Position numbers and translations under genes: made by a program. A DNA stretch of 64,000 nt. Source: an uncultured cyanobacterium (lineage in GTDB: Bacteria > Cyanobacteriota > Cyanobacteriia > PCC-9006 > JAAUQQ01). Shown in pieces: positions 1-44,834 of the stretch. The notes below the pieces were generated by a model. The model was not told where the DNA came from. It saw only the letters and a list, made by a program, of their open reading frames with translations, and made no database searches. The DNA lies in NCBI GenBank assembly GCA_963718615.1, contig OY970368.1:64001-128000 (forward strand), written 5' to 3'. Every line of letters starts with the position of its first letter. Position 1 is the stretch's first letter.

Positions 1-36
1 CGATTCTCGTCGAAGGTGGCGAGGGTGTGAATATTT

Positions 37-588
37 TTAACGAGCAGCGTTGTCATGGGAGTTGTCGTGGGAAATGTCCCTGGATGAATCGACCACAATA
101 GCCCTTAAACGCAGGGCTGCAATTTTTTCAATTTCTGCTAACGCCCTGTTCTTTTCCGTTGGAAGATCCTGTTGTAGGCGTTGTTCAAAGGCGCTGAGAA
201 TGCTGACTTTTGTATGATATTTGACGGCGACAATAAAGGGAAAACCAAACTTAGTTTTATAGGCCCGATTGAGTTCTTGAAACCGTTCAAATTCGGCGGC
301 AGATAATTGATCGAGTCCGAGGCTAGCCTGTTCCTGGATCGAAGCCTCGGCCATTTTGGCGCGACTGCCCAGATCGGGGTGGGCTAAAATCAGGGCCAGT
401 TTGTCAGCTTCGGGACGCGATCGCATCACCGCAATCATTGCCTGCAAGAGATCCTCCCGTGAGCCAAAGGGGCGTTGATTGTAAACCGCTTGGGCGATCG
501 CAGGCGTATGTTCAAAAATGTCTCCCAGAGCTTCGGTAAAAGCCGCCGGATTCATGTGATTGAGCGTAGCGAGGGAGTAGGGAGGCAT
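37..588 (-). CDS. uraD: OHCU decarboxylase
   Basis: Motifs LILAHPDLG, SIQEQASLGL and YKTKFGFPFIVAVK. Start taken at ATG 588 (MPPYSL) because the longer ORF overlaps uraH. Lies in a purine catabolism cluster. Confidence 0.93.
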   Translation of the reverse strand: MPPYSLATLNHMNPAAFTEALGDIFEHTPAIAQAVYNQRPFGSREDLLQAMIAVMRSRPEADKLALILAHPDLGSRAKMAEASIQEQASLGLDQLSAAEFERFQELNRAYKTKFGFPFIVAVKYHTKVSILSAFEQRLQQDLPTEKNRALAEIEKIAALRLRAIVVDSSRDISHDNSHDNAAR

Positions 589-613
589 GGCAAATAGAAA
601 CAGGGAACTCGCA

Positions 614-1012
614 TTAGCTGCCGCGATAGGTGCTGTAGGCCCAAGGGGAAACGAGAAGCGGCACATGATAATGATCACGGGCATCAGCAATGCCAAACTG
701 GAGCGGTACCCAAGTTAAAAAGGGCGGCTCGGGTAGGCTAAGTTCGGTTTTGGCAAAGTAGTGGCCCACATCAAAAACCAGTTCGTAAATTCCTGGTTGA
801 AACGCCGCATCCCTGAGCAAGGGTTCATCGGTCCGGCCATCGGCGTTGGTCTGGGTGCGCTTGAGGAGCGATCGCGTTTCCAATTGCGTTTCCGATTGCG
901 TTTCCAAATTTTGATCGGCACTACCCCGCTCAATTTGCCACAGTGTCAGCATCATTCCCACTGCCGGTGCGCCCCGCGCCGTGTCTAAAACATGTGTTGA
1001 TAACCAGCCCAT
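614..1012 (-). CDS. uraH: 5-hydroxyisourate hydrolase (transthyretin-like)
   Basis: N-terminal LSTHVLDTARG, TNADGR, HYHVPLLVSPWAYS and C-terminal YRGS; no signal peptide. Confidence 0.96.
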   Translation of the reverse strand: MGWLSTHVLDTARGAPAVGMMLTLWQIERGSADQNLETQSETQLETRSLLKRTQTNADGRTDEPLLRDAAFQPGIYELVFDVGHYFAKTELSLPEPPFLTWVPLQFGIADARDHYHVPLLVSPWAYSTYRGS

Positions 1013-2175
1013 CAGCCCAACGGTCCTCCCAAAATTGTCGTGGCTAGGGCATTAATAACATCCTCAGGGGACTCTTGTCTCAGTTGGTCGTACCACTGCT
1101 GCGTGGCTTCCGGCGTTTTGCCGTAGATTGTGTCCGTCCGCTTGCGGGCTTTGAGCACAAGCTGCGCCGTGCGGGCTTTGCGGGCTGCTTCATAGCGGCG
1201 CAGGGCATCGGCCACGCTGAGGTTCGTGGTCACCAGATATTGGGTGAGGATCAAAGCATCTTCGATGGCTTGACACCCCCCCTGGCCTAGGGTTGGTGTG
1301 GTGGCGTGGCCTGAATCACCGAGGAGAGCAACCCGATCGCGCACCAGCCGCTCAGGTGGATCGATATCATGGATTTCTAATCGATTGGCTTCCACCGGAT
1401 CCAGGGTCTGAATCAACGCTTGAACCGGCTCGGGCCAACCGCTAAAAATTTGGGCCAGCTCGGCAGCACGGTTCTCCGGGGCAACCTCCGTCCCTTTCTC
1501 CAGGGGGGCACCAAAAAAGTAATAGAAGCGATCGCCCCCCACAGGCATCATTGAAGCCCGCTTGCTCTCTCCCACATACAACACCCAGTTATCGGGTTCA
1601 CACAACTCCGGTTTAGCCGGAACCAGACCATTCCAGTTCACGTAGTCCGCATAACGCGGCAGGACTTCATGGCCCAGAACATACTGCCGCACCGTTGAGC
1701 GAATGCCATCGGCCCCAATCAGCACATCCCCCGTGGCGCGGCTACCATCTTCAAACACCGCTGTCACGCTGGCTGCATCCTGCTCCACAGCAATGCATTG
1801 CATTCCCAGATGCACTCGCTCTGCCCCCACTGCATCTAGAAGCATCTGCTGTAAATCCGTCCGCGCGACGGGATAAGGCCGTTGACCCACGCGCTCAAAC
1901 AAGGGCTGCAAATCAATTTGGCTGAGGGGTTCATTCTGATGGCTGCGATATTCCATCCGATTCATCTCGCCGCCGATTCCTGCAATTTCCTGACCCAGCC
2001 CCAGCCAGTTGAGTACCTTGATGCCATTAGACCAGAGGGAAATTCCAGCCCCTGCCGGACGCAATTGGGAGGTGCGATCGAAAATCTCCACTGCATATCC
2101 AGCTCGCTGGAAAGCGATACCGGTGGTGAGTCCACCAATCCCGGCACCAATCACAATCGCTTTGAGATTTTCCAT
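1012..2175 (-). CDS. hpxO: FAD-dependent urate hydroxylase
   Basis: GAGIGG Rossmann motif, ADGIRS, LLGDSGHATTPTLGQGGCQAIED, YVNWNGLV. TGATG coupling to uraH. Start at ATG 2175 (MENLKA). Confidence 0.88.
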   Translation of the reverse strand: MENLKAIVIGAGIGGLTTGIAFQRAGYAVEIFDRTSQLRPAGAGISLWSNGIKVLNWLGLGQEIAGIGGEMNRMEYRSHQNEPLSQIDLQPLFERVGQRPYPVARTDLQQMLLDAVGAERVHLGMQCIAVEQDAASVTAVFEDGSRATGDVLIGADGIRSTVRQYVLGHEVLPRYADYVNWNGLVPAKPELCEPDNWVLYVGESKRASMMPVGGDRFYYFFGAPLEKGTEVAPENRAAELAQIFSGWPEPVQALIQTLDPVEANRLEIHDIDPPERLVRDRVALLGDSGHATTPTLGQGGCQAIEDALILTQYLVTTNLSVADALRRYEAARKARTAQLVLKARKRTDTIYGKTPEATQQWYDQLRQESPEDVINALATTILGGPLG

Positions 2176-2209
2176 AGTTTCTGATTGATCTGAACGCCGT
2201 CTTGAGCCC

Positions 2210-3649
2210 CTATTGCCGAGGTCCTGGTAAGAAAATATTGAGCAGGAGGGCTGATAATCCACCGGTACTAATGCCCGATGAAAAAATGCTTTTGGCCAGG
2301 GGAGGCAGCTTCGCCAAAATATCTGGTGCAAAGGTGACGCCTAACCCCAACCCCAGAGATACGGCCAAAATAATCGAGGCTCGTTTTGTCAAGTTAACAC
2401 AGGAAATAATCTTAATGCCAGCCACCGCAACCGTCCCGAACATAATCAGCGTTGCCCCCCCCAAAACGGGCTGAGGAATTGCCTGGAAGATGCCGCCAAA
2501 AATCGGAACTAAACCGAGCAGTGCAAAGATACCCGCAATGTAGTAACCCACATACCGACTGCCAATTCCAGTCAACTGAATTACACCGTTATTTTGGCTA
2601 AATGTGGTGTTTGGAAATGTGTTGAAGCAAGCAGCAATGAGCGAGTTTAAACCATCGCCGAGGATGCCACCGCGAATGCGATCGAAATACAGTTTTCCTG
2701 TAATCGGCTGACCCGTCAGCAGTGAGGTCGCGGTCAAATCCCCAGTGGATTCAATGGTTGTAATCAAATACAAAAAGGCAAAGGGTAGAAAGGCGGCAAT
2801 GTCAAACCCAAAGCCGTAGCGAAATGGAATAGGAATCGCGATCAACGGCATACTTCCCAAGCGACTTAGGTCAACTAATCCCATCGGAATCGAAACCACA
2901 TAGCCCACGAGGAGACCAATGGCGATCGAAGACATGCGCAGCAAAGGACTACTCAAACTGTTGAGAATGACGATGATTGCTAGCACTAGACCAGCCAATA
3001 GCAAATATTCAGGATTGCCAAAAGTGTCATTTTGCTTGGCTGCAAAGCCACCGCCAATGCTGGTAATTCCAACATTCACTAAGGTTAAACCAATCAACGT
3101 TACGACAATACCGGTCACCAAGGGCGTAATCAGTCGTTGAGCCAATTGCATAAATCGGCTAAAGATCATCTCGATGAAAGCACCGAAAAAGCAAAGGCCG
3201 AAGATCAAACCTAGAGCTTCGGAGGGCGATCGCCCCGCGCCCACAGCCCCCGTTCCCGCTGCAATAATCGGTCCAATAAAGGCAAAGCTAGTGCCCTGAA
3301 TACTCAGCAACCCTGACCCCACGGGGCCAATTTTCTTGGCCTGGATAAACGTGGCAATCCCTGAAACAAAAAGGGACATGCTGATGAGATAAGAAGTATC
3401 CGTAGGGGGGAGGCCGAGGGCTCCGGAGACGACGAGCGAAGGCGTAATAATGCCAACAAATGAGGCAAAGACATGCTGCAAAGCCGCAAAAATGGATTCG
3501 CGCACGGGGGGGCGATCTTCGAGCCCATAGATTAAGTCAGACTCCAGTAATGCAGGGGATTCAGCCGGATCTGAAAGGGCTGTATCGGGGAGGGCGGCGA
3601 TCGCCTCCCCTGTCGCATACTCGGTTCCAAGGGGTTCACTGGTACTCAT
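2210..3649 (-). CDS. NCS2/NAT family xanthine/uric acid permease
   Basis: ALQH motif, NAT signature TTFSQNNGVIQLTG, many TM helices. Start at ATG 3649. Confidence 0.92.
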   Translation of the reverse strand: MSTSEPLGTEYATGEAIAALPDTALSDPAESPALLESDLIYGLEDRPPVRESIFAALQHVFASFVGIITPSLVVSGALGLPPTDTSYLISMSLFVSGIATFIQAKKIGPVGSGLLSIQGTSFAFIGPIIAAGTGAVGAGRSPSEALGLIFGLCFFGAFIEMIFSRFMQLAQRLITPLVTGIVVTLIGLTLVNVGITSIGGGFAAKQNDTFGNPEYLLLAGLVLAIIVILNSLSSPLLRMSSIAIGLLVGYVVSIPMGLVDLSRLGSMPLIAIPIPFRYGFGFDIAAFLPFAFLYLITTIESTGDLTATSLLTGQPITGKLYFDRIRGGILGDGLNSLIAACFNTFPNTTFSQNNGVIQLTGIGSRYVGYYIAGIFALLGLVPIFGGIFQAIPQPVLGGATLIMFGTVAVAGIKIISCVNLTKRASIILAVSLGLGLGVTFAPDILAKLPPLAKSIFSSGISTGGLSALLLNIFLPGPRQ

Positions 3650-3680
3650 ACAATATTTCCTAAAGTTAAAACGCAGTGGC

Positions 3681-5522
3681 TCAAAATCGAAACTGGGTTC
3701 GGACATTGCCCACCCAAAGGGTGGGGTTATCGCTAAAGTTGTTGGGGTTTTGAATCATATAGACCGCCGGAACCAAAGCCAGATTCTCCGTGAGCGGCCA
3801 GTAATAGGTCGCCTCCACTTCATATTGAATGCCGCCATCGCCGCCACCTGCTGCCAGGAATCGACGACCCTCTAAAATCGAAAAGGGCACCCCATAGGAA
3901 AGCGTTAGCAATGCACCCGGTCGGCCTAGGTCAGGAAAAGCAAGCCCCGCCTGAAACGCTTGGGCATTGACCTCTCCATCGGCTCGACCGGCGGTGGTGG
4001 GCTCAATTTGGGTACTGCCATAGAAGTAGCGACCAAAGACCCCTAAGCGCTTGCCCAAACGCCAATCAAAATTGACACCAAAGGTATCAGCCTTGGCCGT
4101 TTCAATGGACCCTCCAAAGCCATCATCGGCCACGCCGTAAATTGGTTCTCCGGTGGCTCCCCCAACCCCAAATCCAGTCAAGGCCCCGGTTTCACTAAAC
4201 AGCGGTACATTATTATCGAGATTAGAGCGGGTGTAGAGCAAACGCACATTAGTACTCTTTGTGGGTTTAAGGGTCAGCCCCGCCGTCAGTGTATTCGTAC
4301 CGCCGAATAAACCGCCCTTGCTCGCATCGGAAGAGGTATTAAAAAAGGCGCTGGGTAAAAACTCGGTATTCTCGCCCAAATAGCCCACACTCACATTGAG
4401 CCAATCCGCCGCATCCCAGCGCACCACGGCCCCAGAACCTCGATCGATGGCATTGACCAACGTACCGCCGCTGCTGTTGAAACTGCCTGCCCCGGTCAAG
4501 AAAAACGTATAGGCATTGCCATCAAAATAGCGATACCAGTTCAGCCGAGGCCCCACGGCTACACGCACATGGTCTCCCACTGGGAAATCGTAAAATAGCT
4601 CCCGTACGACCACCGTATTGGCTGTTGGAGTTCCAGTTTGATCGGTAAAGGGCACACCAAAGGTATTAAACAGCCCCGCAGAAGCGTAAAAGTTAGCGGA
4701 CGAGACGCTGTTACCCACGGCCAATTGTGTCACCAACTGATCTTTGCCGGTAAAGGAAGTATTGAGCGACAGCAGGGCATAGGCCCCTAGCGTTACCCCT
4801 GGATCATCCGTTTCCGTGGCCACCAACGGTTCTGCGGTCAGCGAATTTCGCCCAGCCCGACGCAAATTGAGCGGTGTGCTGAGGCTACTGGCTTCAATCT
4901 TGACATCATCCCCACCGAAGGCCCCCGTGAGGTTAAAGAATACATTGGCGCTGAGTTTAGTCGTCGTGGAAAACTGGTTCGCCTCTAGCTCAGCAGTTCG
5001 GGCCTCTAAGGCATCGACTCGTCCCCGCAGAGTCGCCAGCTCCGCTTGAAACTCCTCTTGCAATCGCTGCACTGTGGCTAAATCATCTGCTGAAACTAAA
5101 TCCGCAGTCGCGGAGGCAATTAACTCATTGACGCGATCGAGACAAGCATTCAATCCCGCTGCAAACTCATAGCGGGTCATGGCTCGGCTACCCCGATAGG
5201 TACCGTCTGGATAGCCCGCAATGCAGCCATAGCGCTCCACCAGCGATTGCAGGGCTTGAAATGCCCAATCAGTTGGTCGCACATCCCGTAGCTGATCGAC
5301 GCTGGTCACCTGATCCATGGCATCTTCGGATGATAGCCCCGCGTCAATTTGGGCAATCCCTTGGGCCATCTCTTGGGCCATCTCTTGTTGGGCAATCCCT
5401 TTGGCCATGCCTGCGCCCTGGCCCAAGACAACATTGAGCAATACAACTAGGACAAACGCCGGAAAATTCGATACTAAAAAAACTGCAGATGGTTCATTCA
5501 ACAACCCAACCCTCACTCCCAA
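3681..5522 (-). CDS. Cyanobacterial porin (SLH domain + coiled coil + OprB-like beta-barrel; 'iron uptake porin' family)
   Basis: DVRPTDWAFQALQSLVERYGCIAGYPDGTYRG and TRYEFAAGLNACL (SLH), FSTTTKL, C-terminal RTQFRF. Start uncertain (TTG 5522, 5504 or 5501). Confidence 0.92.
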   Translation of the reverse strand: MGVRVGLLNEPSAVFLVSNFPAFVLVVLLNVVLGQGAGMAKGIAQQEMAQEMAQGIAQIDAGLSSEDAMDQVTSVDQLRDVRPTDWAFQALQSLVERYGCIAGYPDGTYRGSRAMTRYEFAAGLNACLDRVNELIASATADLVSADDLATVQRLQEEFQAELATLRGRVDALEARTAELEANQFSTTTKLSANVFFNLTGAFGGDDVKIEASSLSTPLNLRRAGRNSLTAEPLVATETDDPGVTLGAYALLSLNTSFTGKDQLVTQLAVGNSVSSANFYASAGLFNTFGVPFTDQTGTPTANTVVVRELFYDFPVGDHVRVAVGPRLNWYRYFDGNAYTFFLTGAGSFNSSGGTLVNAIDRGSGAVVRWDAADWLNVSVGYLGENTEFLPSAFFNTSSDASKGGLFGGTNTLTAGLTLKPTKSTNVRLLYTRSNLDNNVPLFSETGALTGFGVGGATGEPIYGVADDGFGGSIETAKADTFGVNFDWRLGKRLGVFGRYFYGSTQIEPTTAGRADGEVNAQAFQAGLAFPDLGRPGALLTLSYGVPFSILEGRRFLAAGGGDGGIQYEVEATYYWPLTENLALVPAVYMIQNPNNFSDNPTLWVGNVRTQFRF

Positions 5523-5550
5523 TCACATCAACGAGAAGCACTTGCCCGTC

Positions 5551-5592
5551 AGTGTAGGGAGTCCTCAGGGATGGGGTTGTATCCGTCAAGAC
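5551..5592 (-). promoter_or_regulatory. Putative class II NtcA-activated promoter for the porin-permease-hpxO-uraH-uraD genes
   Basis: Minus strand reads GTC-ttgacgga-TAC (5592-5579; TGT-N10-ACA), then exactly 22 nt, then TACACT (5556-5551). This matches GTA-N8-TAC-N22-TAN3T with one mismatch. Confidence 0.7.
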
Positions 5593-5609
5593 AAATCCCA
5601 ATCTTCCGT

Positions 5610-7034
5610 TTAGATTCCGTTTTCTGCATTCTGATATAACGGATTGCCCATGACATAGGTGGCCTGTACTGCGCGATCGTCCCCTAGCATCAAGAGGGAG
5701 AAGAGGCGATCGCCCACCTGGGCCAAACCCATCGAATGCTCTCCTTTCGCATCCGTCCAATCCGTCAAATTACGGAAGGCCAATAGAGGCGTTGCCCGCG
5801 AATTGAGCACCACAAAATCAGCGTCTTTTCCCAAAGCAAAGCTACCCAACCTCGATTCTAGTCGCAGGGCCTGAGCCCCCCCTAAGGTCGCGAGAAACAA
5901 AGCCTGAAAGGGCGAAAGTTTTTGCCCCCGTAGCTGCGCAACCTTATAGGCTTCGTTACTGGTTTGTAGGAGTGAAAAGCTGGTACCTGCCCCGACATCG
6001 GTTCCAAGACCCAGCTTAACTGGATGTTGCGTAGATTTTGCTTGTTCGAGGCGAAATAAACCGCTACCCAAGAAAAGATTAGAGGTGGGGCAAAAGGCGA
6101 TCGCTGCCTCTGCCTCCGACAACCGTGCAAATTCACGATCGCTGAGATGTACACCATGGGCAAAAATCGAGCGATCGGTGACTAAGCCCGCCTGATCATA
6201 GACATCGAGATAGCCTTGGCGGTCCGGAAATAACTCCTTAACCCAGGCGATTTCATTCAGGCTTTCAGACAAATGGGTATGTAGATAAACATCAGGATAT
6301 TCTGATAATAAACGTCCTGCGATCGCTAATTGTTCATCGCTCGAAGTAATCGCAAATCGAGGCGTAACGGCATAGCGTAAGCGACCTTTATGATGCCATT
6401 TTTCAATGAGTGCTTTAGTTTCTATATAGGACGATTCTGCTGTATCGCAGAGAAAATCTGGCGCATTGCGATCCATCATCACCTTGCCCGCAATCATACA
6501 AAGATTGCGCTGTTCTGCCGCTTCAAAAAACGCATCAACGGATTCGGGATAGACCGCTGCAAACACCAATGCAGTTGTTGTTCCGTGGCGCAAAAGTTCC
6601 TCTAGAAAAAACGCGGCGACCTGCTGGGCATAGGTCCGATCCTGAAATTTGGCTTCCGTCGGGAAAGTATAGTTGCTCAGCCATTCCAAGAGCTGTTCCC
6701 CGTAGGAAGCAATCATCTCCGTTTGGGGATAGTGAACGTGGGTATCGATTAAGCCGGGGATAATCAGAAACTCGGAGGAGTAGGCCGTTGTGGGGAGATG
6801 ACTGTAGCGATCGCCCAACTCCGAAAACGGCCCAAACGCAACAATCTTGCCGCTTTCAAGCACTAACAAACCATCCGGCAGCCAGCGTACTGCCTCCGCT
6901 TCGGCTACAAAAAACGGATCCGCAATGCAGTCTAGAAAGGAACCGCGAATAGCGCTCAGGGAGCCAGCAGCGCTGCTCTCAGCGGTATGGGTCTCGGGAT
7001 CGACGTTATCAGCGGCATCATGGGAATAGGGCAT
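5610..7034 (-). CDS. guaD: Guanine deaminase
   Basis: PGLIDTHVHYPQ, YAVTPRFA, HTHLSE, GLGTDVGAGTS amidohydrolase motifs. Confidence 0.96.
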   Translation of the reverse strand: MPYSHDAADNVDPETHTAESSAAGSLSAIRGSFLDCIADPFFVAEAEAVRWLPDGLLVLESGKIVAFGPFSELGDRYSHLPTTAYSSEFLIIPGLIDTHVHYPQTEMIASYGEQLLEWLSNYTFPTEAKFQDRTYAQQVAAFFLEELLRHGTTTALVFAAVYPESVDAFFEAAEQRNLCMIAGKVMMDRNAPDFLCDTAESSYIETKALIEKWHHKGRLRYAVTPRFAITSSDEQLAIAGRLLSEYPDVYLHTHLSESLNEIAWVKELFPDRQGYLDVYDQAGLVTDRSIFAHGVHLSDREFARLSEAEAAIAFCPTSNLFLGSGLFRLEQAKSTQHPVKLGLGTDVGAGTSFSLLQTSNEAYKVAQLRGQKLSPFQALFLATLGGAQALRLESRLGSFALGKDADFVVLNSRATPLLAFRNLTDWTDAKGEHSMGLAQVGDRLFSLLMLGDDRAVQATYVMGNPLYQNAENGI

Positions 7035-7110
7035 GGGCTCAAGCGCAAAGGGCGATCGCACACAGGTCTCCTATGCTAGCTTAGCCTCCATCGAAGTTAG
7101 AAGATAGAGG

Positions 7111-32631: not shown

Positions 32632-32645
32632 GTAATGTTTATTAC
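32632..32645 (+). promoter_or_regulatory. NtcA box 1 upstream of glnB
   Basis: GTA-atgtttat-TAC, exact GTA-N8-TAC. Confidence 0.65.
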
Positions 32646-32756: not shown

Positions 32757-32801
32757 TGTATCTTCTCGTACATCAAACCCCCTTTTAACTCCGCTTACTG
32801 T
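32757..32801 (+). promoter_or_regulatory. NtcA box 2 and putative -10 element of glnB
   Basis: TGTA-tcttctcg-TACA (32757-32772); TACTGT at 32796-32801, 24 nt after TAC (slightly long spacing). Confidence 0.7.
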
Positions 32802-32828: not shown

Positions 32829-33179
<351 letters not shown>

Positions 33180-40943: not shown

Positions 40944-41564
40944 ATGAAAGTTTCTTCCTCGGGCATCCTGCTCGCCCACCAAACTCAAATCAGCGGCACC
41001 GTCGGCGGCACCCATCACTTTGAACCCAATGATACTCCCCGTGCGGGCGAACCCAACTTGGCTTGGTTTGCCCTCACCCAAGCGGGGGGTGAAACGATTC
41101 CCTTAGGGGATTGCGACTGTGAATTAGCGGTCTACCCAGGCATTGATCCCTCTCCCAATGCTACCCCGATTGCCACGCCAGCACTTAAAGCCATTTCCGC
41201 TGAAGGACTACAAAACATTCCCGCCGCTGAGATTTTATTTCCTAAGGTTGGAGCCTATGAGCTAGTCTTGCGCGGACGCCCCCAGGGGACAGCGACGTTT
41301 GAGCCTTTTGAGCTACAGTTTTCTGTGACCGTTGCAGCGGGTAAAGTGACGGATACGGTGACAGATAAAAAAGTGGTAGATAAAGATGTAGCGTCAACTT
41401 CAGCGCCAACTACCTCATTGCCAACCACCTCAGCGCCAACCCCTTCAAACCCTTCAACCACAAATTCCTTTCCCCCTCGAATCGGCATTGTGAGTGGGGT
41501 AGGACTAGCCGCCCTTGTAGCACTGGGACTGGTGCTGTGGAAAACGCTGCAAAGGTCTGTCTAG
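40944..41564 (+). CDS. Hypothetical membrane-anchored protein
   Basis: HHFEPNDTPRAGEP, WFALT, CDC motif, Thr/Ser/Pro linker and C-terminal TM segment; starts 1 nt after the peptidase stop. Confidence 0.72.
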   Translation: MKVSSSGILLAHQTQISGTVGGTHHFEPNDTPRAGEPNLAWFALTQAGGETIPLGDCDCELAVYPGIDPSPNATPIATPALKAISAEGLQNIPAAEILFPKVGAYELVLRGRPQGTATFEPFELQFSVTVAAGKVTDTVTDKKVVDKDVASTSAPTTSLPTTSAPTPSNPSTTNSFPPRIGIVSGVGLAALVALGLVLWKTLQRSV

Positions 41565-42907
41565 GGTTGGGTTGGAATCAACGATAAACTATGTTGTACC
41601 ACCGACTGTAACTGACTCAGACTCTCCCAGTCTGGCGTAAGTGCCGGTAAAGCTTGGACCATAGCGCGAAGCTGAAAAAGTTGCTGCTGCAAGCATTCTG
41701 CGGTGGCGATCGCCTCCCGTTCCAACGCTTCCAATCGCTGCTGCTCATGGGCAATCAATTGGCTCCCCCGCAAAATCTCAAGCTGCACCTTCTCTCCACG
41801 GGCCTGCCCACTGGCAGGAGCTGCGCTCATCGGCTCAAAACTGAGCTTCAGCATTACAGGCTGGCCCTGGAACGATCGCATCAAAATCCGGCGGGTTCCT
41901 GGCTGCACCGGCTCTAGGGCTAGTCCGGCCAACTGCTTCAACTCCGCGACCAAACCTTGAAACGCTTCCGGTTCCACTGGATCTAGGGCAATTTGAGCAA
42001 CGCCTTTAGGGTCCCAGGCAATGCGTCCACAGCCCCCATTGGATCCCAGCAGGAGCCGTCGGCTACCGCTGGAGAGGGCTCGACCTAGGAGTTCTGCTAG
42101 AAATTGGGGTGGGGGCAGGGTGGCGATCGCCTCCATCGGCTCCAGCAGATGCTGAACCGCCACCGGCAGCTCCGGCAGATCAAGCACACCAGGGCTGGGA
42201 GCACGTTCCGTTGCAGCCTTTAGATTGCCGCCAAAGGGTTCCAGGGGAAACTGCGTTGCATCCAGCAAAAGCGTTGCCCGCTGGTCCACAATCCCCAGAG
42301 CCTCTACCTGAGCAAACCGATGGTCCCGCAAGGCCGCAATCTGCTGTTCTGCTTGATCGGGTTCTTGATCTGGCTTTTCTGCCGTTAGGGTCGTCTGGGC
42401 CGCCGCACCCACTGCGGGCTTGAGTTCAGCTTCAGGAAAATCCTGTTCAATGGCTTCGAAGCAAATCTCAGCATTCCCCTCAGCGTTCGGCTCAAGGGCG
42501 GGTTGGCTTACACGATTGAGATAGGCCGACAGCAGCGTTTGGTGAACCGCGCCCGCTAAGGCTTGAACATTGACCGGGTAATGGTGGTAAGAGGCCATGC
42601 GAGTGGCGTACTCCAGCGCAATCTCATCGGCGGAATCAACCATCCCTAAAATCAACGTACCACTTTCCACATAGAGCGGCAAAACCCGGTGGTAGAGACA
42701 AACTTCCAGGGGCAAAATCCGGTCGATCAGCAAAAAGACCTCTTCCGGCTCAATTCCTAAGGGAATCATGATGCCCTCAGCGGTATAAACCGCTTCACCC
42801 TCTGAGTCCGTCCTAGAGAGCGAGGCAGACTGCATCGGCACTGAGGATACTGAGGATACAGCGGGGGATAAAGGGGAAGGAATGCGATCGCGAGACTCAA
42901 GTACCAT
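41561..42907 (-). CDS. PilB/GspE N-terminal-domain protein lacking an ATPase domain
   Basis: LPLEVCLYHRVLPL...LILGMVD resembles the GSPII_E N-terminal domain; no Walker A motif seen. Confidence 0.55.
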   Translation of the reverse strand: MVLESRDRIPSPLSPAVSSVSSVPMQSASLSRTDSEGEAVYTAEGIMIPLGIEPEEVFLLIDRILPLEVCLYHRVLPLYVESGTLILGMVDSADEIALEYATRMASYHHYPVNVQALAGAVHQTLLSAYLNRVSQPALEPNAEGNAEICFEAIEQDFPEAELKPAVGAAAQTTLTAEKPDQEPDQAEQQIAALRDHRFAQVEALGIVDQRATLLLDATQFPLEPFGGNLKAATERAPSPGVLDLPELPVAVQHLLEPMEAIATLPPPQFLAELLGRALSSGSRRLLLGSNGGCGRIAWDPKGVAQIALDPVEPEAFQGLVAELKQLAGLALEPVQPGTRRILMRSFQGQPVMLKLSFEPMSAAPASGQARGEKVQLEILRGSQLIAHEQQRLEALEREAIATAECLQQQLFQLRAMVQALPALTPDWESLSQLQSVVQHSLSLIPTQP

Positions 42908-43364
42908 AATGCTTTCTACCTTTCACAGATGCAGCTCACCGATGAAGTTCACAGATAAAGGCCACAGGTGCAGCAGAGGTCCTCGGCTCAACCCCGCTGG
43001 CCTGTCGATCAAAAATGCTTAGAACCTTTAATCCCAAGGCTTCTCTAGCTGAGACAGTACCGGGGGTTACTCGGTTTCACAAGTAAGGGAACTTACCTGT
43101 AGTATACCGATTTGCACGGAGGCAGTCCGGATCTACATACAACCCTTATAGTCGTTACGGATTTTCTATTGGGACTAAAAAATTTTCTGTGAAGCGGCAG
43201 GTCAATCCCCATCAGGGATTGGCGAAAGGGCAAGGGGAGGGCGAGGCCACAGAGAGAGGGGAAAGGCGATCGCCTCCATTTCAGTTTGTTAGACTGGGAA
43301 TCAATGTGTATGCTTCACGAATCTTTTTAATTCACTCCCCACAGACCGCTTCACGAGGCTATTT

Positions 43365-44834
43365 ATGGTAGTTGCTGCTCCTATTTTTCACCACACCGAA
43401 ACGAAATCCACAACGCCGTCGAAAGCGCGGCTAGATGGGGCCTGGGAAGGAACCCTTTCAACGCTGTTAGGGTTAGGGCGCGCGGCGGGCGCGGATTTTG
43501 TCGAATTTTTTCTGGAGCGGGTCAACTATATTAGCTGTCTAGCGGAAGACGACGCCATCACCAGCATTTCGCCCAGCATTTCGACGGGGGCCGGGGTACG
43601 GGTGTTTCTGGGCAAAGCCGACTGCTATGTCAGCACCAATGATTTGTCGTTCAATGGCCTAAAACTGGCGCTGGAAAAAGCCCTCTCGATTATGGGGCTG
43701 CAATTACCAGGATCCAATGCCTTCGTGCCTGAGGTTTATCTCGAACCCCTACGGGACTACGCGGTCCTGCGGGGCAAGGAAGACTGGCTGAGCACCTGTA
43801 GCTCCATGCAGGAAATGGGTGATGTGCTCCTAGGGGCCAATGGCAAACTCAACCAAAAAGCCAACCATGTGCAATCCCGCCGAGCGGCCTATTTCCGCGA
43901 TTGGCAGGAAGTCCTTGTGGCCGCCAGCGATGGCGTGTTTGCGCGGGATATTCGACTCACCCAGTCCGTGGGCTATAACCTGCTCTGCGCCGACGGTGAA
44001 CACCGCTCCTCCATTGGGCAGCGCATCGGCAGTACAGGGGAACCGGGCTTTTTGCGCAACTGGAACTATGAGCACACCGCCGAAGAGGTGGCAGAGTCGG
44101 CGGGCAAGATGCTCTACGCGGATTTTGTCGAGTCGGGCAACTACCCCATCGTCATGGCCAACGAGTTTGGCGGCGTGATTTTCCACGAAGCCTGTGGTCA
44201 CCTGTTGGAAACGACCCAGATTGAGCGCAAGACGACGCCGTTTATGGACAAAAAGGGTGAAAAAATTGCCCACGAAAACCTAACCGCCTGGGACGAAGGC
44301 ATTTCCCCGAGTGCCTTTGGCACAATCGATATGGACGACGAAGGCATGCCCGCCCAGCGGACGCTGCTGATTGAGAATGGGATTTTGAAGAATTTCATTA
44401 GCGATCGCGCCGGATCCATGCGCACAGGCCATCCCCGCACGGGTAGCGGTCGTCGCCAAGGCTACACCTACGCCGCCGCTTCGCGCATGCGCAACACCTA
44501 CATCGCACCGGGCGAATATTCCCTAGACGACCTGTTTGGCTCCATCGAGAAGGGCATTTACTGCAAGAAAATGGGCGGCGGCAGCGTCGGTCCCACGGGC
44601 GAATTTAACTTTGCTGTAGATGAAGCCTACCTGATCGAAAACGGCAAAGTCACCAAGCCCCTCAAGGGCGCAACGCTGATTGGCGAAGCCACTGAAATCA
44701 TGCAACGCATTTCCATGTGTTCCCAGGACTTGGGCCTCGCAGCCGGGTTCTGCGGGTCGGTGAGCGGCAGCATTTATGTCACCGTCGGTCAGCCCCACCT
44801 CAAGGTCGATTCGATTACCGTCGGCGGTCGCTAG
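43365..44834 (+). CDS. tldD: TldD metalloprotease subunit
   Basis: HEACGHLLE zinc motif, DDEG, RMRNTYI, FCGS..G...V.VGQP. Confidence 0.93.

Follow-up and report, generated by a model that had tools for sequence, protein, structure and literature searches.

Hardly any outer-membrane porin of cyanobacteria has a known substrate. For the best-studied ones, the pore is reportedly too narrow to admit most organic nutrients (PMC10628300). According to the same report, OmpM acts both as a tether and as a nutrient channel, and it is for the OmpM-type homologs of Synechocystis that a pore too narrow for most nutrients is claimed. A connection of such porins to the nitrogen regulator NtcA is described for two organisms: slr1841 belongs to the NtcA regulon of Synechocystis (PMC5714215), and the gene of the Anabaena OprB-type porin, all7614, is an NtcA target in chromatin immunoprecipitation (ChIP; PMC3898017). 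OprB-type porins are listed as raised under nitrogen limitation and the Prochlorococcus protein PMM0709 as a phosphate-starvation porin (PMC5451487), and the phenotypes given for Anabaena porin mutants concern metals and envelope integrity (PMC9705863). In other bacteria, a xanthine/urate riboswitch is described to control NMT1-type transporters, dioxygenases, guanine/8-hydroxyguanine deaminase-like amidohydrolases, and the nucleoside channel gene tsx (PMC7373994). A full-text literature search, with subscription journals largely outside its reach, returned no paper tying a porin to cyanobacterial purine catabolism and none tying NtcA to genes for the metabolism of urate, xanthine, or allantoin. 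Here we analyze an SLH/OprB-type porin gene that lies in a run of purine genes, behind an NtcA-type promoter motif, in a 64,000-nucleotide stretch of DNA (hereafter the window; bases 64001–128000) from the complete single-contig 6.1-Mb genome of an uncultured cyanobacterium (contig OY970368.1).

Positions 1–7061 of the window constitute a single same-strand gene run, entirely on the minus strand, in the order guaD, an 87-nt gap containing the motif, the SLH/OprB porin, pbuX, hpxO, uraH, uraD, and the gene of an 8-oxoguanine deaminase (Table 1). Gene identities were assigned by hidden Markov model (HMM) scans against Pfam and NCBIfam, using the curated cut-offs in bits, and every gene of the run scores above its cut-off. 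The layout proposed in the initial annotation, a porin between guaD and the permease-hpxO-uraH-uraD genes, is borne out by these scores. We consider it rather likely, on the basis of gene content, promoter motif, and comparison among genomes, that an NtcA-activated operon begins with the porin gene and that its product lets oxidized purines enter through the outer membrane under nitrogen limitation.

The purine-linked porin module is a variant of two themes that are both already known, the nutrient-linked porins and the NtcA regulon. Its closest functional analog is the regulon of Tsx and the xanthine/urate (NMT1-motif) riboswitch, where an outer-membrane channel is likewise co-regulated with NMT1-type ATP-binding cassette (ABC) transporters, Rieske or other dioxygenases, and deaminase-like amidohydrolases (PMC7373994); genes of the same kinds are found around the porin clade. 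The channel families, however, are unrelated, and the product-sensing riboswitch of that regulon is apparently replaced here by a global nitrogen regulator: Rfam gave no riboswitch match at the gathering score in the whole window and four cluster loci, and none at E ≤ 1 in 5400–5700. Pseudomonas OprB (4gey), the PhoE-type porins, and PMM0709 are further cases in which a porin is encoded together with the inner-membrane transporter for one class of nutrient and shares its regulation, the last being a precedent for a porin co-encoded with its nutrient transporter (PMC5451487), but the cargo of these systems is sugars or phosphate and their regulators are others. With the Klebsiella-type hpx pathway the run shares HpxO, hydroxyisourate hydrolase, and OHCU decarboxylase, all above equivalog cut-offs; it differs in that no HpxDE-like or Xdh step for xanthine oxidation was found in the genome and in that the predicted operon also includes the genes of a porin and of an 8-oxoguanine deaminase. 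The Klebsiella hpx cluster is not known to include a porin.

In its architecture the porin follows the NF033921 (por_somb) porins Slr1841 and All7614, themselves NtcA ChIP targets (PMC5714215, PMC3898017): a hydrophobic N-terminal leader is followed by an SLH domain, a long coiled-coil helix, and an OprB-type barrel of approximately 16 strands with a C-terminal phenylalanine. An AlphaFold model with the 25-sequence clade alignment as input (mean predicted local distance difference test, pLDDT, 73.8; predicted template modeling score, pTM, 0.66) comprises a disordered leader, the SLH domain, helices at residues 85–182 including one of 38 residues, approximately 16 main strands at 187–612, and the terminal Phe. 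The best solved matches of this model in Foldseek are the chitoporin VhChiP, P. putida OprB (4gey), and Veillonella OmpM1 (8bym), with E-values of 1e-12 to 1e-14 and template modeling (TM) scores of 0.61–0.67 normalized to the target. The barrel fold predicted for the porin is related to that of OprB 4gey (E 1e-13, TM 0.61 normalized to the target), but the two proteins are only 13% identical in sequence, and OprB is without an SLH tether. As modeled, the architecture is that of an ordinary OmpM-type tethered porin, and the model is silent on the cargo.

Phylogenetically, the porin is set apart from the characterized por_somb porins, none of which is reported beside purine genes and whose proposed cargo is inorganic ions or iron. 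The own genome encodes eight full-length por_somb porins; the best full-length paralog is 39% identical, and the others match the SLH/coiled-coil part only. Porins of the same clade were detected in 48 of 401 genomes of the phylum, at 59 places (E ≤ 1e-100, 43–65% identity), and a relative from the same family as the window reaches 74%. Orthologs from different cyanobacterial families are 46–74% identical to the porin of the window. In a maximum-likelihood tree of 86 porins (quick search, LG+G4), built from 52 clade members, 7 paralogs of the own genome, and 27 paralogs of five other genomes, the clade is placed on a long branch with values of 90 and 92 in the Shimodaira–Hasegawa-like approximate likelihood ratio test (SH-aLRT). 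Anabaena all7614 was considered as an ortholog and rejected: it matches residues 64–322 only (N-terminal 42%) and is a paralog. For this reason, the data on all7614 give no direct experimental support.

Linkage of this clade to purine genes is recurrent. Of the 401 genomes, 32 encode an HpxO above the cut-off; 26 of these also have the porin, compared to 22 of the 369 genomes without HpxO, the genomes in both counts being related. Within ±9.4 kb of 31 non-self hpxO copies, a clade porin occurs 13 times: at full length in 11 loci (52–60% identity), in two pieces in one (L037), and cut by the locus edge in one (L057/L098). All porin matches in these 31 loci (E ≤ 1e-10, any coverage) belong to this clade and to no other paralog, which is not expected by chance because each genome holds 5–10 por_somb paralogs. 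In the two-piece case (L037:421–1514, minus strand, genome G318), the porin near hpxO matches residues 69–160 and 326–613 only, in contiguous DNA; approximately 165 barrel residues have apparently been deleted, and the gene is possibly decayed.

Conversely, 50 of the 59 porin places were surveyed for purine and ureide genes within 6 kb (left out were G214, G354, G338, G386, G394, G186, G328, G250:C157 (genus g3), and G288:C76:26568). Counted were hpxO, uraH, uraD, pbuX, guaD/8-oxoguanine deaminase, the PuuE-like deacetylase, the M20 amidohydrolase, AH_C, and the Rieske/VanA_C oxygenase. At least one of these genes lies near the porin in 22 of the 50 loci. A Bmp-type nucleoside ABC transporter is the only such neighbor in two more loci, and another two are ambiguous, one having a GntR regulator only and the other a paralogous FAD monooxygenase only. 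Depending on the lineage, the direct neighbor of the porin is guaD, the 8-oxoguanine deaminase gene, uraH, uraD, pbuX, hpxO, the M20 gene, the PuuE-like gene, an NMT1-type substrate-binding protein (SBP) gene, Bmp, or GntR, and the linked loci show about ten gene orders. The association has therefore outlasted repeated rearrangements, and the linked members are scattered over most sub-clades of the porin tree. A whole purine module is even carried by the 135-kb plasmid NZ_AP017563.1 of Pseudanabaena sp. ABRG5-3 (L131, 12286–33884), which encodes hpxO, uraD, puuE, a ring-opening amidohydrolase, a GGCT-like protein, uraH, a porin 58% identical to that of the window, three ABC transporter genes (NMT1-type), 8-oxoguanine deaminase, a Zn hydrolase, and GntR. 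Setting the porin phylogeny against the gene neighborhoods, a check suggested in the initial annotation, gave a favorable picture, a distinct clade with recurrent purine linkage, and the tie between the porin and purine catabolism proposed in the initial annotation has strong comparative support.

The plasmid-borne porin is labeled “iron uptake porin” in RefSeq and carries a Gene Ontology (GO) term for iron import. Taken at face value, this database name and that of NF033921 would make the porin of the window an iron-uptake channel or, considering that an SLH domain and a coiled coil are typical of OmpM-type tethers (PMC10628300), a purely structural outer-membrane tether whose location is incidental. 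However, the name covers the whole family and not this clade, the 50 clade loci show no conserved iron-related neighbor of the porin, and neither recurrent purine linkage nor NtcA-type promoters would be expected for an incidental location, so that we regard this explanation as very improbable. The product name and the iron-import GO term would then amount to a systematic misannotation that is propagating in RefSeq.

The promoter motif provides the second line of evidence. In the canonical NtcA promoter as described in PMC3898017, GTAN8TAC is centered at −41.5 and combined with a −10 box of the form TAN3T, and one-mismatch boxes with GTG..TAC and GTT..TAC are among the sites bound in vivo. The motif GTCTTGACGGATAC-N22-TACACT lies inside the 87-nt gap between the guaD stop at 5610 and the start of the longest porin open reading frame (ORF) at 5522. 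Its box GTCTTGACGGATAC at 5592–5579 begins 18 nt past the guaD stop, is flanked by T and A, and matches five of the six defining bases, the mismatch being GTC for GTA in the distal half-site (the plus strand reads GTA-N8-GAC). The initial annotation had noted GTC-N8-TAC-N22-TACACT at 5592–5551 on the minus strand, which is present exactly as described, and had called it near-perfect, a fair wording for one mismatch combined with the correct spacing and the correct −10 box. The site shares the 22-nt spacing, the TAN3T hexamer, and the lack of a −35 box (in 5523–5609) with the class II NtcA promoters of glnA, nirA, and urtA; unlike canonical class II promoters, this candidate promoter has GTC and not GTA in the distal half-site. 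From this geometry, transcription is predicted to start near 5544, which would place the center of the box at −41.5. The −10 box ends 29–47 nt upstream of the candidate start codons of the porin (TTG 5522, GTG 5516, and TTG 5504/5501), among which the true start is uncertain. A consensus scan revealed neither a sigma-70 −35/−10 promoter nor a terminator in the guaD-porin gap (5523–5609), and no terminator-like site in any intergenic gap of the run.

Considered in isolation, the motif of the window carries little weight. A 64-kb window is expected to contain the exact pattern 0.15 times, and 13 of 100 shuffles contained it at least once; together with N22-TAN3T the genome contains 22 perfect, 93 one-mismatch, and 12 GTC..TAC sites. 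The motif might be a chance match, with transcripts of the porin and the downstream genes arising by read-through of guaD transcription or at an unrecognized promoter, with or without a pathway-specific regulator. In line with this, the box carries a mismatch and has 93 sites of equal quality genome-wide, no terminator separates the porin from guaD, which has the same orientation, and GntR/FCD regulators are found beside the cluster in other genomes. A spacing histogram over the non-coding DNA of this genome yielded 46 one-mismatch sites at spacing 22 vs. 24–36 at any other spacing between 16 and 28, and 14 perfect sites at spacing 22 vs. 2–10 at other spacings; only about one third of the one-mismatch N22 sites are in excess and, on sequence alone, perhaps functional. 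The genome does encode ntcA (TIGR03697, 381 bits vs. a cut-off of 245), and perfect GTAN8TAC-N22-TAN3T motifs precede nirA, urtA, and glnA, which account for three of the 11 perfect non-coding sites having a downstream ORF. What makes the site in the window convincing is only its position and its conservation upstream of orthologs.

This conservation was assessed in two scans. The first covered 500 nt upstream of an anchor at residue 65 in 47 clade porins and was compared to 500 dinucleotide shuffles. Perfect GTAN8TAC-N22-TAN3T motifs precede six of the 47 porins (shuffle mean 0.04; 0 of 500 shuffles reach six), and motifs with at most one mismatch precede 12 (shuffle mean 0.44; 0 of 500 reach 12). 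When the spacing was varied from 14 to 31, which serves as a composition-independent internal control, 12 matches were obtained at 22 and no more than two at any other value. The second scan used wider upstream regions bounded by ORFs in the 50 clade loci and again allowed at most one mismatch with N22-TAN3T. Here, the motif was found upstream of 18 of 50 porins (six perfect), 4 of 6 NMT1-type SBP genes that are the first gene of SBP-porin operons (one perfect), 3 of 8 pbuX (two perfect), 2 of 8 guaD/8-oxoguanine deaminase genes (one perfect), 1 of 11 hpxO, 1 of 6 Rieske, and 1 of 3 Bmp genes (each perfect), and 1 of 9 GntR genes (not perfect), compared to 9 of 526 unrelated neighbors (four perfect). 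Counting both strands of the 50 loci, 14 of 20 perfect motifs precede cluster genes. The motifs mostly stand ahead of uptake genes, and the enzyme genes come after these within operons; in L055, for example, a perfect motif is located ahead of a Rieske-pbuX-hpxO-...-uraH-uraD-porin run. One palindromic box, flanked on both sides by TAN3T at a distance of 22 nt, serves the divergent pbuX and porin genes in L033 and L045, and the same two-sided layout occurs in L088 between guaD and an unnamed ORF. With predicted starts 83 nt apart, these two-sided boxes look like a bidirectional NtcA promoter.

The claim that the porin lies behind an NtcA-type class II promoter accordingly gains strong comparative support from the motif kept upstream of orthologs and from the sharp peak at spacing 22. 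The same promoter type upstream of orthologs far over background also makes a chance match in the window improbable, as do the good placement of the box, with the −10 box at the distance from the candidate start codons given above, and the failure of tblastn (E ≤ 1e-8) to detect a GntR ortholog in the own genome.

Both patterns, purine linkage and motif, are seen again in seven porin loci outside the first set, which came from a subsequent search of 41 relatives and include no more than ±1.5 kb of flanking DNA. Purine genes are present within 1.5 kb in three of the seven: L146, from the same family as the window, has the order hpxO-uraH-porin-pbuX, and L148 and L150 have a divergent hpxO beside the porin. 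A fourth locus (L154) has a Bmp gene. The motif precedes the porin in three of the seven loci, with one mismatch in L146 and L147 and perfect in L157, and was not found upstream of the porin in L148, L150, and L160.

Genus g3 possesses a second porin copy (L070–L073, L100; part of the context in L099) with a conserved purine-free neighborhood, which consists of genes for a phytochrome-type kinase, a response regulator, DUF1830, ComFB, DUF6464, and sucrose-phosphatase, followed by the porin and a Ser/Thr kinase. In L070, L072, and L100, the conserved one-mismatch box GTTAAACC(A/C)ACTAC-N22-TAN3T is kept.

As to the pathway, HpxO, UraH, and UraD are all present above their cut-offs and represent the HpxO-type urate-to-allantoin set. 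Judged from their family assignments, the enzymes of the operon can carry urate and 8-oxoguanine to (S)-allantoin, and guanine to xanthine and ammonium. A xanthine-oxidizing enzyme was not found, as neither XdhB (TIGR02965) nor the molybdopterin-binding domain MoCoBD_1 (PF02738) has a match in the complete genome; a close HpxD-like Rieske oxygenase is also lacking in the own genome, the best match to the cluster-type enzyme being 31% identical. Therefore, the xanthine-to-urate step has no assigned enzyme in this genome. The “complete outer-membrane-to-allantoin route” of the initial annotation thus holds, as far as allantoin, for urate and 8-oxoguanine, but not for guanine and xanthine. Beyond allantoin, neither a PuuE nor an allantoinase scores above its cut-off in the own genome; two AllB-like matches reach 281 and 253 bits vs. 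a cut-off of 358. Accordingly, no enzyme of this genome can be assigned to the liberation of the ring nitrogens. A gene of the allantoate-amidohydrolase subfamily (NF006771, 431 vs. 399) and a small AH_C protein are encoded 2.2 Mb away. Like GntR, the PuuE, HpxD-like Rieske, NMT1 SBP, Bmp, and ring-opening amidohydrolase genes of the other clusters have no ortholog in the own genome (tblastn, E ≤ 1e-8).

A number of observations weigh against a purine-dedicated, NtcA-activated porin. In addition to the mismatch in the box and its many equals in the genome, and to the missing xanthine-oxidizing and allantoinase enzymes, 24 of the 50 clade loci have no recognized purine, ureide, or nucleoside-transport gene nearby, among them the second copy of genus g3 beside the sucrose-phosphatase gene and RTX-linked copies of family f7. 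HpxO is absent from 22 of the 48 porin genomes, and the clade is not strictly purine-bound. The purine/urate selectivity put forward in the initial annotation is a hypothesis drawn from genomic association. On the promoter side, 32 of the 50 upstream regions lack a motif with at most one mismatch, some of these porins being operon-internal, and it is likewise lacking at the divergent hpxO/porin loci L148 and L150. A GntR/FCD regulator is present in the cluster of many other genomes, so that control may be shared with, or lie mainly with, a regulator other than NtcA. The neighbor labels rest on BLAST clusters of which a single representative each was scanned against Pfam, and the sampled genomes are related, so the counts overstate independence.

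These observations bear on the main rival explanation, according to which the protein is a non-selective, NtcA-induced nitrogen-stress porin for small organic and inorganic nitrogen compounds that is found often, but not specifically, beside purine genes. This would fit the clade loci without a purine neighbor, about half of the total, the porin genomes without HpxO, and the one-mismatch motif retained at the purine-unlinked g3 copies. Nutrient-stress-induced OprB-type porins are, moreover, described for cyanobacteria (PMC5451487, PMC5714215), and the predicted fold resembles that of general trimeric porins. Against it, linkage to purine genes has persisted through about ten gene orders and on a plasmid, and every porin detected at the 31 hpxO loci belongs to the clade despite the 5–10 paralogs in each genome. 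We rate this explanation as unlikely, though more probable than a chance motif or an iron or structural role.

A dedicated entry route for oxidized purines could operate as follows. The operon porin-pbuX-hpxO-uraH-uraD-(8-oxoguanine deaminase) would be read from a class II NtcA-activated promoter located past guaD. When combined nitrogen is short, 2-oxoglutarate-bound NtcA would bind the box approximately 41.5 nt upstream of the predicted start near 5544 and recruit RNA polymerase to the −10 hexamer TACACT. Presumably anchored to the cell wall via its SLH domain, the porin would pass oxidized purines (urate, 8-oxoguanine, xanthine, or guanine) through its barrel of approximately 16 strands and thereby across the poorly permeable cyanobacterial outer membrane, and PbuX might represent the inner-membrane step for the same compounds. 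The deaminases would free ammonium, and HpxO, UraH, and UraD would turn urate into allantoin.

More tentatively, the whole clade might consist of dedicated entry channels for oxidized purines and nucleosides within a shuffled, sometimes plasmid-borne module for scavenging purine nitrogen under direct NtcA control. In this module, NCS2 PbuX and ABC transporters of the NMT1 or Bmp type would be interchangeable inner-membrane importers that work together with the HpxO pathway. If this applied to the whole clade, it would assign an organic-nitrogen substrate to a cyanobacterial porin for the first time and represent the first description of a urate/xanthine-type outer-membrane channel from any bacterium, and purine catabolism would join the NtcA regulon. 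The genomic context and the promoters of the clade point to one nutrient class and thereby lead to a concrete, testable substrate hypothesis. They also offer an explanation of how cyanobacteria with a tight outer membrane might use purines from lysis or excretion as a nitrogen source, and they extend the predicted NtcA regulon to the uptake and breakdown of purines.

Table 1. Features of the purine gene run in the window, in the order of the minus strand (scores in bits, each followed by the curated cut-off).
Feature	Position	Strand	Evidence or remark
guaD, guanine deaminase GuaD	5610–7061	-	TIGR02967 579 vs. 375
NtcA-type box tGTCTTGACGGATACa	5579–5592	-	1 mismatch to GTAN8TAC
−10 hexamer TACACT (TAN3T)	5551–5556	-	exactly 22 nt downstream of box
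SLH/OprB porin, 613-aa ORF	3681–5522	-	NF033921 404 vs. 100; PF04966 112.8 vs. 22.9; PF00395 29.8 vs. 20.8
pbuX, NCS2 xanthine/urate-type permease PbuX	longest ORF 2210–3706, likely 2210–3649	-	TIGR03173 440 vs. 414
hpxO, FAD-dependent urate hydroxylase HpxO	1012–2331	-	NF033623 598 vs. 500
uraH, 5-hydroxyisourate hydrolase UraH	614–1012	-	TIGR02962 120 vs. 87
uraD, OHCU decarboxylase UraD	37–696	-	TIGR03164 179 vs. 96
8-oxoguanine deaminase, 5' end of ORF	1–98; genome 62695–64098 (L062:16695–18098)	-	NF006055 690 vs. 532

Within the run, the likely ATG of pbuX at 3649 lies 31 nt past the porin stop. The ORFs of hpxO and uraH overlap, and the true start of hpxO is probably near 2163, as the NF033623 match begins at residue 57 of the ORF. 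The gene of the 8-oxoguanine deaminase closes the run and extends beyond the left edge of the window; orthologs with 71–73% identity are also found next to the porin in L063 and L080. On the 5' side of guaD, the same strand encodes DUF2214, an ICMT-like methyltransferase, NMO, and cysK, which look unrelated to the purine run.

NtcA-type motifs were also observed elsewhere in the own genome. A perfect one is located upstream of a HetZ-family gene (162692–163834; NF037963, 625 vs. a cut-off of 550). In the window, two perfect GTAN8TAC boxes on the plus strand (32632–32645 and 32758–32771) precede a P-II (glnB-like) gene at 32841–33179 (plus strand), which has a full-length match to NF008111 with 154.7 bits, below the cut-off of 202; a −10-like hexamer, TACTGT, follows the second box after 24 and not 22 nt. 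Two further perfect boxes on the plus strand (43057–43070 and 43083–43096), whose starts are 26 nt apart, fall in the 458-nt gap between the divergent ORFs 41561–42907 (minus strand), which has no family match, and 43365–44834 (plus strand), which encodes a TldD-like metalloprotease.

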